DNA of 64,000 nucleotides, from IMG/VR virus record IMGVR_UViG_3300001798_000005; one strand, given 5' to 3'. Positions 6,782-60,336 of this stretch are shown piece by piece; the stretch's first letter is position 1, and each line of letters begins with the position of its first letter. This stretch comes from a virus. Lineage: Duplodnaviria; Heunggongvirae; Uroviricota; Caudoviricetes. The position numbers and the translations under genes are program-made. The notes below the pieces were generated by a model. It was given only the letters and a program-made list of their open reading frames with translations, did not search any database and had not been told where the DNA came from.

Positions 6782-6945
6782 GCTATTGGGAAGACAAGAA
6801 GTATCACGTTGAGCTTGAGCTGGCCTGCTTGAACCTGGAGCGGCTAAATGCCGCATATGAGCTTAATCGGCTCACTGGGCTGATGGCATCCCTTCATGCG
6901 GAGCTTAACCGCATTAATCTCCGCTTGACACAATCGTCCTGAATC

Positions 6946-7188
6946 TTGCATAATAATTTTATGCAGTTCAGGAGAACAACCGTGGAAATTGTATTTTTAA
7001 TGGTGGGATTAGTTATCGGCGCGATGGCGGTCGGCGTCGTGGCTGGATCGATGATCGATGAAGTCAATTCTGATAAAGAATACCTTCTTGATCTCCTCCA
7101 GCAGTACAATGGCGGCCAGGAGATCCCCCACCGGGATCAGTGGGCCTGGAAGGCTTTTCGAGAAGCCAGAAAGGAATTTAAGGCATGA
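6946..7188 (+). CDS. Small membrane protein
   Basis: Single hydrophobic segment (IVFLMVGLVIGAMAVGVVAG). Confidence 0.5.
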   Translation: MHNNFMQFRRTTVEIVFLMVGLVIGAMAVGVVAGSMIDEVNSDKEYLLDLLQQYNGGQEIPHRDQWAWKAFREARKEFKA

Positions 7189-36797: not shown

Positions 36798-37574
36798 TTA
36801 AACGACAGGATTCAATTTGTCGTAAAGTTTCACACCCTCATCTGAAAACAGCGCTTTCGTGTAAGCTTGCTCAAAAGTTAGGCTTGGGTTTTTATCAACA
36901 ATTTCTTTCGCCATAGCGGTTAGGCGGTCCTGAGGGGCTTTTTTCTCAACAGAAGCCTTGCCGACTTCCTTAAAGGCAGAACCCAGGGACTCATTGGCGG
37001 ATTTCAAAACCTGAAGGGCGTATTCTTTATTATCGCCATCGAGGCCAGCCAAGGCTTTCAACAGTTGAGCCTTTTGGACTTCATCCCCAGGGAGGTTGGG
37101 GATTTCGGCATTTGCCTGTTTGGCAAATGCATTCAATTCCAGGACTTCCTGTTGGGACTTCAGGGTTTTGGCCATTTCAAGATTTTGTTTCACAACAGCT
37201 TCAAGCTGTTTCTGAATGGTTTCCGAAAGCCCCTCTTTGGCAACTTCAGCGGCCTTGGCCTCAGCGGCCTCCTTGTCGGCGATCGCTTTAGCGACTTCCT
37301 GGGCGGCATCGGCTTGAGATTTGGCGAGTTTGTCCTCAGCGGTTTTTTGATCCGCCTGGGCCTGCTCAAGAGCTTTTTGCATTTCTTCCAAGGTCATTTT
37401 AGGGACTCCCTCATTAAATTCTGCATCTGTTTTAATTTCAGATTCCTCGATCATAGCATCCGAATCACACGATCCGTTTTTTGTCAACAGCATGTTGGCA
37501 AATTGATTTGCTCCAATGGTGACATTTGATACTTCAGTGAGGATCAGCTTGTGACATTTCTTTTTAGCTTTCAT
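36798..37574 (-). CDS. Capsid scaffolding protein
   Basis: L.EVS.V..GANQ.A N-terminus; long Ala/Lys/Glu coiled coil. Confidence 0.7.
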   Translation of the reverse strand: MKAKKKCHKLILTEVSNVTIGANQFANMLLTKNGSCDSDAMIEESEIKTDAEFNEGVPKMTLEEMQKALEQAQADQKTAEDKLAKSQADAAQEVAKAIADKEAAEAKAAEVAKEGLSETIQKQLEAVVKQNLEMAKTLKSQQEVLELNAFAKQANAEIPNLPGDEVQKAQLLKALAGLDGDNKEYALQVLKSANESLGSAFKEVGKASVEKKAPQDRLTAMAKEIVDKNPSLTFEQAYTKALFSDEGVKLYDKLNPVV

Positions 37575-38577
37575 CTAATTTTTCCCATACGGCATTGCCG
37601 CCTATTGAAAACATTTTGAGGTTGCCATCCTTGATGGATTTCCAAACCTCTGAATCGTCAATCTTCACACCAATCAGCCAGCCGACCTTTTTTAGATCAA
37701 TCCCTAAAACCTTCTGAAGCTCTTTAGTGAACATCATCGATTCAACAATGGTTCCGGTGGATTCACCGACGTGCATTGTTTTATTGGATCTGGAGTCCTG
37801 CATGAATTCCACAACCGCATCAGCCAAAACGTCTTCCGGGATGATGTCACCATGTTGGTCGATGACTTCTTTCCCGTCTTTCTCCACCACAGAGGCCCAC
37901 CCATAGACGAGCTGTTTGTCAGTAGCGCCGGTCTTGATGATCTCCCCCTCCATCTTGAGGGTATCGGCCCAGTCGGTCCGGTAGGGCATCACTTCTTCCG
38001 CCTCGAAGGAAAGCTCAAAAGTCGGGAGCTTTACTTTAGAAAGATCAAAATTAAGTCCCACATTATAAGAGACCGTCACATGTGGCTCCCGGTATTCCGC
38101 CCAATCGAAATCCATCCCGAGGGCAATTGCCTTCGTGTTTTGTTCATCTACCTCATGGCAGGGGAAGCTCAAAACCAAGGCCTCACGGTTTGGCCCAACG
38201 AACTTCAGAGAGTAAGGGGGGTATTCGTCATTTAACCCAATCTGTACCCGGATAGGGTTAACGAGCGGTTCATACCCGGCAAAACCATCAGGGGACCTGA
38301 TGACGGTACAGTGAAGGAGTTCAGCCGGGACCGGGTTGGGGATCTTATTCTCTTCCGCCCATCTGGAAAGATTCACCTCAGTGGTGGCGTCGGGTTTCAT
38401 CCATGAATAGATGCCGGCCGATTCCTTCCAGGTCCGTTCAGGAGATAAAAAACCCTGCTTCTCGACGGCGATCCAAGCGGCAAAGGATCGGTGGATCTCC
38501 CCCTGGTTGGGGGCAGCCAGGTAAGCCTTGTAGAAGGCTTCACGGGCTGGCATGTTGGGGATTTGGTTAAAGTCCAT
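37564..38577 (-). CDS. ChaB-like + Acb1-like 2H phosphoesterase + XkdF-like prohead protease fusion
   Basis: AAW.AVEK (ChaB-like); H89-C-T and H166-V-T 2H motifs with NPVP and SYNVG; LVYGWASV...D.HGD...FSIGG (XkdF). Confidence 0.85.
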   Translation of the reverse strand: MDFNQIPNMPAREAFYKAYLAAPNQGEIHRSFAAWIAVEKQGFLSPERTWKESAGIYSWMKPDATTEVNLSRWAEENKIPNPVPAELLHCTVIRSPDGFAGYEPLVNPIRVQIGLNDEYPPYSLKFVGPNREALVLSFPCHEVDEQNTKAIALGMDFDWAEYREPHVTVSYNVGLNFDLSKVKLPTFELSFEAEEVMPYRTDWADTLKMEGEIIKTGATDKQLVYGWASVVEKDGKEVIDQHGDIIPEDVLADAVVEFMQDSRSNKTMHVGESTGTIVESMMFTKELQKVLGIDLKKVGWLIGVKIDDSEVWKSIKDGNLKMFSIGGNAVWEKLDES

Positions 38578-39584
38578 CAGTCACTCAAATAATCAATTTT
38601 GTAAAATACCGTACAGCGGCATTGCACCGTCAGGGCCGCAGGGGCACGGGGATCGCCCGGATATTGGATCAGATATCCCCCAGGGGCCTTGAAGGGTTCC
38701 CGGAGCCCCACCCCGTCGGGGTTCAGAGCCGGAATCCCCCCATGGGCATGCGCGGGTCTGGTTTTCCCATCTTTAGTATAAATCCACAAACGGCGGATCC
38801 GCTTTTCCTCAACCTGGCCCTTCTCTGCCATATCTTCCCAGAGGGCCTGGCCGGACATGCTGAGGGATCGGATCGATTCCGTGCGGGCGATGACTTCAGA
38901 TCTGTACTTCAGATACCGGTCCCGATACCGGGCCGTCATTCGGTCAATCTGTTCACCCTTCAGGGCCTTATCTTTTAAATTCAGAATCGTCCGATCAAAC
39001 CGTTTATCCCGAAGCGCTCTGTTAAGCGCTTCGGATGGCTTGTTGATCAATGCCTGCCGGTAGTTCGATACTGCCCGATCCTGTGATGCCGTCAGGCCAA
39101 TGTGATTTTTTATCTCCCTGGCGGTCTCGATGGGGTTGATCCCACCCTGGAGGGAGCGGGATACAATCTGCTCAATCGTGGTTCGGGTTTCATCCGTCAG
39201 GCCACGGATCAGGGACCTCTTATACTGATCCAGCACCCCGGTCAGTTTTGGGTTTGCCTGATCGAAATAAACATGGGTGTCGACCCGAACGCCCTGCCCG
39301 AATGGATCCCGCGCTTGCGGGAGCGCCGGAACTTCTGCCGCGATAGCCTTCCCGGAAGTAACAAAGCTTTCACTTATCTGCTCCCCAAAGGGCTGAAAGG
39401 CGGCTGAAATGTTGGTTTCACTGATCTCCCCCAGTAGGAGATCCACTCGGCCCCGGCTGAGGAGATCCGTTATCTCAGTTTCCGGGATGACGGCTTGAAG
39501 GCGATCGAGGGAAAGCAAAAATGAGGCCGCCAGTGCTTTCTCATTTGCCGATTGAACGGTCTGGAGGTTCTGGCTTTGGTCCAT
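38577..39584 (-). CDS. Head morphogenesis protein (SPP1 gp7/Mu gpF family)
   Basis: IARTES; W....D..TRPAH; YPGDP.AP...TVQCRCT. Confidence 0.88.
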   Translation of the reverse strand: MDQSQNLQTVQSANEKALAASFLLSLDRLQAVIPETEITDLLSRGRVDLLLGEISETNISAAFQPFGEQISESFVTSGKAIAAEVPALPQARDPFGQGVRVDTHVYFDQANPKLTGVLDQYKRSLIRGLTDETRTTIEQIVSRSLQGGINPIETAREIKNHIGLTASQDRAVSNYRQALINKPSEALNRALRDKRFDRTILNLKDKALKGEQIDRMTARYRDRYLKYRSEVIARTESIRSLSMSGQALWEDMAEKGQVEEKRIRRLWIYTKDGKTRPAHAHGGIPALNPDGVGLREPFKAPGGYLIQYPGDPRAPAALTVQCRCTVFYKIDYLSD

Positions 39585-51847: not shown

Positions 51848-52192
51848 GTGAATTATAAAGAATTTATCACCCTGGCCAGTCAGGGGAAAAAGCTCCGAGA
51901 TAAAACTTGGGGTAAGGAACTGTGGATCCAGATGAGGGATGATGGGACTTTTATCAGCTCGGACGGTCGGGCAATGCACTATCAGGCTGGGGCAGACGTT
52001 TCTGAATTTGAGATCTTTATCGAGCCCGTGACCTTTGAGGCATGTCTGGCTGCGCAAAGTGTCAATATTATATTTCCCGGCGGAAACGGATCTTCTGATG
52101 ATAGCTATACTCAATCAGGCGGTTGGACCCTCCAGGAGCTTTCAGTTTTTGATCTCGCCATCCGGTATGGTTGGGAAATCGAACTCTCATGA
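51848..52192 (+). CDS. Hypothetical protein, paralogue of 47026-47361
   Basis: Shared motifs with 47026-47361; first gene after a strong promoter. Confidence 0.7.
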   Translation: MNYKEFITLASQGKKLRDKTWGKELWIQMRDDGTFISSDGRAMHYQAGADVSEFEIFIEPVTFEACLAAQSVNIIFPGGNGSSDDSYTQSGGWTLQELSVFDLAIRYGWEIELS

Positions 52193-52899
52193 TCGCCATC
52201 CCCGACATTCATGGCCGCTATGATCGCCTTCAGGCCATTCTGAAACTGTTAAAAGAGGCCGGAAAGGCCGATCCCAAAAATATGATCTTCCTCGGGGATT
52301 ATGTAGACCGAGGCCCGGAGTCGGCCCAAGTGGTCTCGACCCTGCGGGAGTTTCAGCGCCAAGGGGCTATTGTCCTTAAGGGCAATCATGAGGGGCTGAT
52401 GTGTGATGCGGTTTTAAAGGGCCACTTTGAAGCAACTTCCCTTTGGGAGATGAACGGCGGGGGTGAGACAAGGCGATCCTATCATGCGACCTATCAGGAC
52501 CCCAGCGCAGCCCTGAGGTATGATGCCAAGTGGCTGCAGGATCTGCCGCTCTATCACGAGAACGAAACGGAGTTCTTCTCTCACGCGCCCCTGCCACCGC
52601 TGTTAGAAAAATCTTCTCAATTCCCAGATTGGCGCTTGGCGCTCCTGAATGAGCAGATTATGACCTGGAGCTACTTCCAGCCAGAGAATGCCGCCTTCAA
52701 GGTGCCGGGCAAGGATGCCTATTGCGGCCACGTCCACGCCCTCCGGGCCAATATCTGGTTACCTCGCTTTTATGAACGCTATGCCTACCTGGATGCCGGG
52801 TGCGGTTGCCTCCCTGATGCTAAACTGGTGGCTTTCGATACTGAAGAAAAGAGACTTTATGTTGATGACCTGGAGAAACAATATGGAACCTTTGAGTAA
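52189..52899 (+). CDS. Ser/Thr protein phosphatase-like metallophosphoesterase (NinI/PrpA-like)
   Basis: DIHG; GDYVDRGPES; KGNHE; GHVH. Confidence 0.9.
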   Translation: MIAIPDIHGRYDRLQAILKLLKEAGKADPKNMIFLGDYVDRGPESAQVVSTLREFQRQGAIVLKGNHEGLMCDAVLKGHFEATSLWEMNGGGETRRSYHATYQDPSAALRYDAKWLQDLPLYHENETEFFSHAPLPPLLEKSSQFPDWRLALLNEQIMTWSYFQPENAAFKVPGKDAYCGHVHALRANIWLPRFYERYAYLDAGCGCLPDAKLVAFDTEEKRLYVDDLEKQYGTFE

Positions 52900-59705: not shown

Positions 59706-60029
59706 CTATTTAGACAGGGGGAAGAAATAGGAAGCACGTGCTCTTGTCTGGACTTGTATTTTTTGCTCATCGATTAATTGATTAATCAAGCTATTTCGTT
59801 GGCTCTTATTTAGCCATTGAGTCTTTCTAGTTAGATCCATTTTGTAAATTCCACAATTATCTGAAATTATTTTATAAATTTTATCTTTCTCACTGTGCCG
59901 AGTTGGCTTAAACTCCCCCCTGGTGGTTATTATTTCAATTATTTTATCCAGCTTCTCCTCCAGGGTGGTTATTTTGCTTAAAATGAAGTCAACAGTATCC
60001 ATATATGGCAATCTCCTTTGATAATTCAA
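59706..60029 (-). CDS. Winged-helix protein paralogous to the primase-helicase C-terminus
   Basis: DLTRKTQWLNKSQRNSLINQLIDEQKIQ vs ALTRKTQNLNKRRRTEILNDLVESHQIQ. Confidence 0.7.
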   Translation of the reverse strand: MNYQRRLPYMDTVDFILSKITTLEEKLDKIIEIITTRGEFKPTRHSEKDKIYKIISDNCGIYKMDLTRKTQWLNKSQRNSLINQLIDEQKIQVQTRARASYFFPLSK

Positions 60030-60336
60030 GTATTATAATTGATTTTTTTGATTTTGTAATTCATGAAGTGTATTATTAAGAAAAATATACAACTACAATT
60101 GTAGCAATATACATGTGTAATAATATATATATAATATTAATATATATATTATTAATATTATATATAGTATAGATCATCTAGTACACTTCATCAACTTCAC
60201 GCTTCAACCCCGGTACTGTCTCAGATACCGGGGTATGGATTTTTGGCTTGAAGCGTGAAGTGTGGGGTTGAAAACTTGTGGGTGATTGACTTTCAGCGAT
60301 ATTGAAATCTGACTGAAACGGGCTGAAGCGTGAAGC

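Follow-up and report, generated by a model that had tools for sequence, protein, structure and literature searches.

In phage T4, a capsid-targeting sequence directs Alt and the internal proteins IPI–III into the head, and gp21 trims them. Since 2022, Acb1 has been known solely as a small, free-standing enzyme of T4-like phages. Independently of metal and via a cyclic phosphate intermediate, it cuts cyclic di- and trinucleotide signals on the 3' side of adenosine (PMC9117128). The same work describes the function of its C-terminal lid and the contact made by residue E141, which accounts for the adenosine requirement of T4 Acb1 (PMC9117128). Prohead proteases switch on the cyclic-oligonucleotide-based antiphage signalling system (CBASS) by cleaving nucleotidyltransferases of the cGAS/DncV-like type (CD-NTases) (Hobbs and Kranzusch 2026, bioRxiv 10.64898/2026.03.04.709575). 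Moreover, Iyer et al. 2017, who also summarised T4 Alt, reported that 2H domains of phages occur as fusions with MuF and with portal proteins, and predicted that such 2H fusions degrade defence nucleotides and that their carriers are packaged (PMC5512222). Here, we describe a 64,000-nucleotide stretch of tailed-phage DNA (IMG/VR record IMGVR_UViG_3300001798_000005; "the window" hereafter means this whole stretch), in which an Acb1-type 2H phosphodiesterase is built into a capsid-maturation protease: a single gene of 337 amino acids (aa) joins a ChaB-like N-terminal remnant, an Acb1 domain and an XkdF-type prohead protease (Table 1).

The locus resembles each of these systems and departs from each of them. 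As in the Acb1 of T4 and of Erwinia phage FBB1 (7T26/7T27, PMC9117128), with which it is colinear, the fused domain has the 2H fold, the catalytic tetrad, the N-terminal Tyr, the base-stacking aromatic residues and the lid Trp. However, the characterised enzymes are free-standing proteins of ~150 aa from T4-like myoviruses, whereas here the domain is internal to a head protein, its lid is joined directly to the protease, and E141 is replaced by Met197. An Acb1-type 2H domain on a procapsid-internal protein is also what the MuF and portal fusions display (PMC5512222; Rhizobium phage RHph_I72, described below), but the carrier is here an XkdF prohead protease, which could by itself cut the domain free. 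T4 encodes trigger and Acb1 in two separate genes, whereas here they would be one. With T4 Alt and the internal proteins, the likeness lies in the proposed logic, by which an effector would enter the scaffold core, be released by the protease and be ejected with the DNA, and relatives of the fusion do include Alt-like ADP-ribosyltransferase domains; the targeting element would, however, be a whole protease domain C-terminal to the cargo, whereas it is a short N-terminal peptide in T4.

The central domain was recognised as Acb1 by several sequence comparisons. Pfam Acb1 (PF23474, curated cut-off 27 bits) matched residues 55–205 over profile positions 2–143 of 144 (E 1.6e-18, 67.3 bits), and phrog_755, the T4 57B family labelled 'RNA ligase', matched residues 53–205. 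The FBB1 Acb1 structure 7T26 was the only solved structure found by sequence (phmmer E 3.4e-9). The initial annotation had aligned the domain with T4 Acb1/57B, and this alignment turned out to be real from end to end: tblastn against T4-like Acb1 gave ~31% identity over 156 residues (E 2e-6), the T4-like genes matching residues 53–217, and MAFFT placed the IPNPVP, PH(V/I)T(V/L)SYNVG and DWAD(T/D)LK segments in register with T4-type Acb1. The stand-alone T4-type enzyme ends exactly at DWADDLK, opposite DWADTLK (residues 202–208) in the fusion.

The fold points to the same family. An AlphaFold2 model that drew on an alignment of 48 sequences (mean predicted local distance difference test, pLDDT, 84.5) comprises three domains with low-confidence linkers at residues 47–49 and 207–217. 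Foldseek against the PDB ranked the FBB1 Acb1 7T26 at the top (E 1.6e-9, template modelling score by target 0.73–0.75), followed by the Burkholderia phage BCSR5 phosphodiesterase (E 3e-7) and then E. coli LigT (E 7e-4). The same order was obtained with VIA, a structure search independent of Foldseek, where 7T27_A came first (Z 17.9, root-mean-square deviation (rmsd) 2.1 Å, 137 of 140 residues, model residues 54–204), ahead of BCSR5 (Z 14.4), the LigT-like 4QAK (Z 11.0), and CPDase, Usb1, AKAP18 and viral 2'-5' phosphodiesterases at Z 6–10.5. The BCSR5 enzyme (9Q2Y/9Q2G, with the lid open and closed, respectively) is likewise a phage 2H enzyme with a lid and the second-best structural match, but it shares only 14% identity and ranks below Acb1; we found no publication describing it. 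Moreover, the LigT/2_5_RNA_ligase2 families of Pfam (PF02834, PF13563) gave no match to the fusion protein at E<=1. A better match to another 2H clade such as LigT would speak against an Acb1 assignment, which stands because Acb1 leads both by sequence (profile hidden Markov model, HMM) and by fold (Foldseek and VIA), and LigT has no Pfam match.

To locate functional positions, residue roles were taken from T4/FBB1 Acb1 (PMC9117128) and mapped via the alignment. The catalytic tetrad of T4, H44/T46 and H113/T115, corresponds to H89/T91 and H166/T168, and both 2H motifs that had been claimed are present, as H89-C-T91 and H166-V-T168. The base-stacking residues Y12, W74 and F107 correspond to Y57, Y119 (where the alignment is approximate) and W159, the lid residue W147 to W203, and E141, which contacts adenine N6, to M197. 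Thus, of the nine residues with a mapped function, eight (Y57, H89, T91, Y119, W159, H166, T168 and W203) are either unchanged or replaced conservatively, two aromatic positions of the base-stacking and lid set being conservative aromatic swaps. The catalytic chemistry of Acb1 looks intact by sequence and fold, and the fused domain is probably an active signal-degrading enzyme.

The C-terminal domain is the XkdF protease that had been proposed, as confirmed by Pfam Peptidase_S78_2/XkdF (PF14550, curated cut-off 24 bits; residues 213–330, E 3.8e-18, 66.1 bits) and by several PHROG 'head maturation protease' families, which match residues 206–335 (E 5e-14 to 8e-8). Three separate alignments, with 48, 70 and 50 sequences, show no variation at Asp240, His269 and Ser324, which are candidate catalytic residues. 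A model of this domain only (pLDDT 83.8) had a sole outstanding match in VIA, T4 gp21 (5JBL_A; Z 9.1, rmsd 3.6 Å, 110 of 129 residues); among unrelated rows the highest after it stood at Z 5.4, and the varicella-zoster protease at Z 5.3. This moderate match is supportive of a gp21-type fold without being conclusive. His and Ser lie 55 residues apart, as do H85 and S140 in gp21. The likeness to gp21 would comprise a gp21/assemblin-like fold, the same spacing and the same role in the head operon, whereas the family is here Peptidase_S78_2/XkdF, the identity is ~10%, and XkdF proteases are not known to cleave CD-NTase activation loops. The fusion gene fills the protease slot of the head operon, with the portal and MuF genes on one side and the scaffold and capsid genes on the other, and a Pfam scan of the head module revealed no second protease.

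The open reading frame (ORF) had been delimited exactly, on the minus strand and with 337 aa, and the nucleotide span given for the Acb1 domain was correct. The description of Acb1 as 'embedded' is fair, since ChaB-XkdF is a common architecture and Acb1 lies between both parts. The fusion ORF is not an assembly artefact, because the identical protein with identical neighbours occurs on an independent 57.5-kb contig and homologues with 84% and 69% identity from other samples have the same domain architecture. We also considered M209 as the internal start of a protease-only product; it was ruled out, the residue being Leu in the closest relatives.

A survey of XkdF fusions, suggested by the initial annotation, revealed that the architecture is recurrent, with at least 70 metagenomic relatives in the same domain order. 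For this, a word-indexed search of 5.8 billion proteins was combined with an exhaustive HMMER search of 1.84 billion cluster representatives, of whose 3,709 matches at E<=1e-3 the best 150 were taken, yielding 221 distinct proteins. Domain HMMs made from the alignment found both domains in 70 of the 221, a minimum, as it comes from the best 150 of 3,709 matches. Acb1 is always N-terminal to XkdF in these 70 proteins, and XkdF is nearly always at the extreme C-terminus; Pfam detects PF23474 in all 70 and PF14550 in 67. Even in relatives with as little as ~30% identity to the query the arrangement persists. The first motif has its His in 69/70 and its Thr in 70/70, the second its His in 69/70 and Thr or Ser in 69/70, and the protease residues D240, H269 and S324 are present in 70/70. 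Such conservation is the signature of two presumably working enzymes held together by selection. Some relatives contain a ~110-aa conserved insert, partly DUF5824, between the ChaB/Acb1 part and XkdF (P0010, ~217–330; P0020, ~75–185; P0101; P0152), and this DUF5824-like insert holds the motif ...GIARARDLSNGK...RMKAYFDRHEVDK....

Among 50,697 phage records, tblastn matched 813, none of which covered >=80% of the protein. Salmonella phage SHP1, with 71% coverage, was tried as a cultured fusion and rejected, being a T4-type Acb1 of the usual stand-alone kind that is extended by chance; thus, no cultured phage with the fusion was found. We then placed 78 Acb1 domains (70 XkdF-fused, five T4-like stand-alone, one portal-fused and two LigT-like outgroups) in a quick maximum-likelihood tree. 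The T4-like clade (Shimodaira–Hasegawa-like approximate likelihood ratio test, SH-aLRT, 99) and the portal-fused domain fall within the XkdF-fused diversity, and the window protein belongs to a 14-member clade (SH-aLRT 99), while deep nodes are weak (80–89). This placement confirms, at the level of sequence, that the fused domains belong to the family of characterised Acb1 enzymes. A word-index search with the Acb1 domain alone returned nothing, and because metagenomic stand-alone Acb1 are therefore missing from the tree, it does not tell fusion from fission.

The gene downstream of the fusion encodes a coiled-coil, scaffold-like protein of 258 aa, the start of which, in the +1 frame, shares 11 nt with the end of the fusion gene; this synteny is kept in relatives. 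Its N-terminus (residues 1–34, with the conserved segment ...LTEVSNVTIGAN...) carries a motif of the form h-x-h-x-E-V-S-x-V-x-x-G-A-x-x-G-A, which was present in 6/6 loci examined, including one XkdF-only phage and loci without gene overlap. The motif was found in frame in none of 184 XkdF proteins, and XkdF proteins end ~13 residues past the catalytic Ser. A complex prediction for protease residues 209–337 with scaffold residues 1–60 reached an interaction score (ipSAE) of 0.70, compared with 0.01 for the best of three controls. Of 78 solved complexes, 51 attain this mark, as do 2 of 108 mismatched pairs. Runs agreed in >=91% of contacts, with a partner pLDDT of >=61. In the model, scaffold residues 9–18 pair with protease residues 322–330, the strand bearing Ser324. 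The score, that of a model, supports binding between protease and scaffold but says nothing of affinity or of occurrence in cells. Given that the segment is absent in frame from XkdF and is modelled beside the Ser324 strand, XkdF may be completed or recruited in trans by the scaffold, and the predicted docking suggests how the little-studied XkdF family gets recruited into proheads. A possible identity of the segment with the C-terminal strand of HK97-type S78 proteases was considered; Pfam gave no S78 match on six scaffold N-termini.

A programmed frameshift from the fusion gene into the scaffold gene was also considered and ruled out, the scaffold frame being +1 and not -1 and a canonical slippery site being absent. 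It is further disfavoured by one relative, whose called scaffold gene lies 177 nt further on, and by the 184 XkdF proteins, none of which runs in frame into the EVSxV...GAN motif.

The overall explanation that we consider probable is that of a late head protein in which a competent Acb1 2H phosphodiesterase is covalently tied to an XkdF prohead protease. The Acb1 domain would, as its family suggests, cleave cyclic di- and trinucleotide immune signals (those of CBASS, possibly cyclic triadenylate, cA3) by HxT/HxT acid-base catalysis, and the protease domain would, according to the comparisons and the model, bind the conserved N-terminal peptide of the scaffold. Through this binding the whole fusion would be drawn into the procapsid core. 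The protease might then free Acb1 at the disordered linker 207–217, and the freed Acb1 might, like T4 Alt and the internal proteins, remain inside the head and leave it together with the DNA on ejection. Signals in the cytoplasm would be degraded by molecules still awaiting assembly, at the time when protease activity can trigger CD-NTases. The idea that protease and capsid proteins are CBASS triggers, on which the initial annotation drew, is backed by two preprints (bioRxiv 10.64898/2026.03.04.709575 and 10.1101/2023.05.21.541620). Tethering to the scaffold or procapsid core seems rather likely to us, judging from the comparisons and the model; true packaging in the virion and delivery we propose only tentatively. 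The suggestion made at the outset that Acb1 is packaged, or released at ...DTLK, is compatible with the disordered linker, the predicted docking and the packaged-effector domains of the relatives.

Several observations weigh against this explanation. As a rule, prohead proteases are broken down or expelled when the head matures, and the passenger might be lost with them. Moreover, an enzyme sequestered in the capsid could not reach cytoplasmic signals late in infection. Since the lid must close over the substrate and the protease domain follows only ~8–10 residues later, the uncleaved fusion could be impaired; the linker between Acb1 and XkdF is short and weakly conserved in the MAFFT alignment, and no conserved cleavage motif was found in it by eye in the alignments. 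The Foldseek search with the protease domain was not significant (gp21 E 0.29), and the score of the predicted complex may echo solved proteases that hold the equivalent strand in cis. Finally, the E141 position is Met197 in the fusion and Glu in 29/70 fused relatives, a detail that speaks against a plain copy of T4 Acb1. This position is a specificity determinant that varies in the family and does not define it; because the adenine-contacting Glu is replaced by Met, the base preference may differ from that of T4 Acb1, and Met197 suggests such an altered preference, not lost membership.

If the fusion served timing and stoichiometry only, every molecule of the trigger protease would be made together with one of the antidote Acb1, which would act in the cytoplasm only, late in infection and either still fused or once released, and nothing functional would be packaged. 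Such an arrangement agrees with the escape of phages from Type I CBASS through protease-scaffold fusion mutations (10.1101/2023.05.21.541620), with the activation of CD-NTases by prohead proteases (bioRxiv 10.64898/2026.03.04.709575), with the coincidence of T4 Acb1 activity and late CBASS onset (PMC9117128), and with the translational coupling of the fusion gene in the late head operon. Co-expression, however, needs adjacent genes only and no covalent link; the signals diffuse, and proximity brings no obvious gain. Nor does timing explain the presence of Acb1 on a portal C-terminus or on MuF, neither of which is known as a protease-type trigger, or that of nucleases, ADP-ribosyltransferases and phosphatases on XkdF elsewhere. 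Tethering and loading is favoured because, unlike the timing model, it also accounts for the fusions to portal and MuF proteins and for the further cargos of XkdF. We regard timing as unlikely to be the whole account; being simpler and not exclusive of tethering and loading, it is nevertheless quite possible.

There is a small chance that the 2H domain is not an anti-CBASS enzyme, being instead a LigT-like RNA-end enzyme, a Usb1-like RNase or an enzyme with a 2'-5' oligoadenylate-type target. The HxT/HxT chemistry is indeed common to all 2H enzymes, the matching phrog_755 is labelled 'RNA ligase', the E141 equivalent is lost, some XkdF proteins (P0046, P0082) have a LigT-like or 2_5_RNA_ligase2-type 2H domain in place of Acb1, and the RNase option for phage 2H domains was raised by Iyer et al. 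2017 (PMC5512222). Yet Acb1 is ranked first in the HMM, Foldseek and VIA searches, clearly ahead of LigT-like proteins, CPDase and Usb1, the Acb1-specific lid Trp and base-stacking aromatics are kept, and LigT finds no Pfam match at E<=1; as a mild argument, a non-exhaustive scan of the ten largest non-structural ORFs, which are replication genes, revealed neither an RNA ligase nor a polynucleotide kinase. We consider it very improbable that the fusion has no mechanistic meaning at all, the N-terminus of XkdF being a permissive fusion site where Acb1 works as if alone. The N-terminal extensions of XkdF proteins, of 2–117 aa or more and very varied in content, would fit this, as would the short, poorly conserved linker; the domain order nevertheless holds in the 70 relatives down to ~30% identity with both active sites conserved, and the passenger domains are non-random and typical of conflict effectors.

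The tethering and loading reading is also where the other cargo of head proteins belongs. The cultured Rhizobium phage RHph_I72 (MN988554.1) encodes a 612-aa portal with Acb1 at its C-terminus, the side that faces the capsid (PF06381, residues 40–386; PF23474, residues 460–607, E 1.9e-30), which makes it an experimentally accessible head-internal Acb1. Among 68 longer XkdF proteins without Acb1, we found ParB-like nuclease (ParBc_2) in nine, histidine phosphatase (His_Phos_1) in five, MuF in five, LigT-like 2H in three and PBECR1 RNase in one. Extra domains also occur in fused relatives, as in Acb1-ADP-ribosyltransferase-XkdF (P0181), ChaB-Acb1-XkdF-ADP-ribosyltransferase (P0157) and ChaB-Acb1-ParB-like-XkdF (P0206). 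These combinations suggest that the XkdF protease is a general carrier of conflict effectors. By analogy, the partner domains of XkdF and Acb1 would be of the kinds known from effectors that, like T4 Alt, are packaged and injected. As in polyvalent proteins, a conflict-effector domain is here borne by a head-internal carrier encoded among packaging and head genes. VapB-like and Hva1_TUDOR domains were further seen N-terminal to or flanking XkdF (P0072 is among the metagenomic relatives with such extras).

In its broadest form, which we offer as a speculation and hold to be somewhat unlikely, XkdF proteases would be a general cargo-loading device that docks the scaffold peptide by strand addition near the Ser, carries N-terminal cargo into the procapsid and cuts it free. 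In many uncultured phages, Acb1 would then be a pre-loaded, injected enzyme against signalling, and the link between trigger and antidote would be secondary. If this is true, finished virions are stocked in advance with counter-defence enzymes, which pass into the next host along with the DNA, the cargos being Acb1, ADP-ribosyltransferase, ParB-like nuclease, PBECR RNase and histidine phosphatase.

In T4-like phages, the stand-alone acb1 (57B) directly adjoins ipI, as in Edwardsiella phage PEi26 (L010) and Citrobacter phage CF1. The ipI gene encodes a packaged, injected internal head protein, and the adjacency of acb1 is a weak positional echo of the association of Acb1 with proteins inside the head.

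The N-terminus of the fusion, described initially as ChaB-like, is a more remote case. The model places helices at residues 9–20 and 27–40. Pfam ChaB (PF06150) gave no match at E<=10 on residues 1–60 of the fusion protein and of its two closest relatives, whereas hhalign of the N-terminal region of four relatives against the true ChaB domains of five XkdF proteins gave 75.8% probability (E 2.3e-5, 38 columns). VIA aligned it with ChaB 1SG7 at Z 4.5, among many helical rows, and is not discriminating. A Pfam-significant ChaB stands at the same position in 11/70 fused relatives and in 15/68 longer XkdF proteins without Acb1. The likeness is thus partly confirmed, as a possible remote one and not as a Pfam match, and there is moderate support for residues 1–46 being a degenerate, truncated ChaB-like remnant. 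ChaB-[Acb1]-XkdF is a real, recurring architecture (e.g., P0010, P0157).

The window runs once through a 60,015-bp genome and on beyond the starting point, bases 1–300 recurring at 60016–60315; the genome is circular or terminally redundant, and the first 3,985 bases of the window are seen twice. No tRNA genes were found in the 60,015-bp genome. Pfam and PHROG delimit a complete head module on the minus strand at 35.4–42.5 kb, in the order large terminase, portal, MuF-like, fusion gene, coiled-coil scaffold-like, cement and major capsid. The ATG of the fusion gene overlaps the stop of the MuF-like gene (TGATG), and translational coupling within the late head operon yields the fusion protein. 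No match to the head module came up by megablast among the 50,697 phage records. A profile search of genome contigs (12 closer rows) returned only XkdF-only relatives, mostly metagenome-assembled genomes of Alphaproteobacteria, and the closest cultured XkdF match was Roseobacter phage CRP-6 (tblastn); with the portal-Acb1 of a Rhizobium phage, these are a weak hint to the host. In the early/replication region, a calcineurin-like metallophosphoesterase is encoded on the plus strand (PF00149, E 6.7e-14), which adds another phosphoesterase to this phage.

Table 1. Features of the fusion gene and its surroundings in the window, with positions of related elements in other loci.
Feature	Residues	Sequence	Position	Strand	Remarks
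Fusion gene: ChaB-like remnant, Acb1, XkdF prohead protease	1–337	window	37564..38577	-	337 aa
ChaB-like two-helix N-terminus	1–46	window	38440..38577	-	putative remnant
Acb1-type 2H phosphodiesterase	55–208	window	37954..38415	-	
First catalytic motif H89-C-T91	89–91	window	38305..38313	-	corresponds to T4 Acb1 H44/T46
Second catalytic motif H166-V-T168	166–168	window	38074..38082	-	corresponds to T4 Acb1 H113/T115
Lid DWADTLK with W203	202–208	window	37954..37974	-	W203 corresponds to T4 W147
Linker, predicted disordered	207–217	window	37927..37959	-	candidate release site; pLDDT <50
XkdF-type (Peptidase_S78_2) prohead protease	213–337	window	37567..37941	-	
Scaffold N-terminus with conserved segment	1–34	window	37473..37574	-	
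Scaffold-like gene, coiled-coil	1–258	window	36798..37574	-	downstream of the fusion gene
MuF-like head morphogenesis gene		window	38577..39584	-	PF04233; phrog_3517 E 1.8e-69; upstream of the fusion gene
Portal, Mu-type		window		-	PF06074
Cement protein		window		-	PF09956
Major capsid protein, lambda-E-type		window		-	PF03864
Calcineurin-like metallophosphoesterase		window	52171..52899	+	PF00149
Scaffold motif		L004	~6924-7040		
Scaffold motif		L005	6911-7030		
Scaffold motif		L006	7038-7130		
Scaffold motif		L007	6340-6440		
Scaffold motif		L008	5781-5880		
Portal with C-terminal Acb1, RHph_I72	1–612	L009	3618-5453		EVC26_034, 'putative portal protein'

In the literature, we found no paper with both 'Acb1' and 'XkdF', and the fusion is mentioned neither by Hobbs et al. 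2022 nor in the preprints on the protease trigger (2026) and on escape from Type I CBASS (2023), nor in a 2025 survey of anti-signalling fusions. The architecture is recurrent in uncultured phages and apparently undescribed in the searchable literature. A signal-destroying enzyme welded to the trigger protease would be natural evidence that the protease trigger matters in the wild, and the fusion offers a testable link to how CBASS senses phages. Moreover, the partners of Acb1 (the protease, the portal C-terminus and MuF) are all procapsid-internal, and sister proteins carry Alt-like ADP-ribosyltransferases and nucleases; they therefore point to virion-delivered anti-signalling enzymes, which would be a mode of counter-defence yet to be demonstrated for cyclic-nucleotide nucleases.

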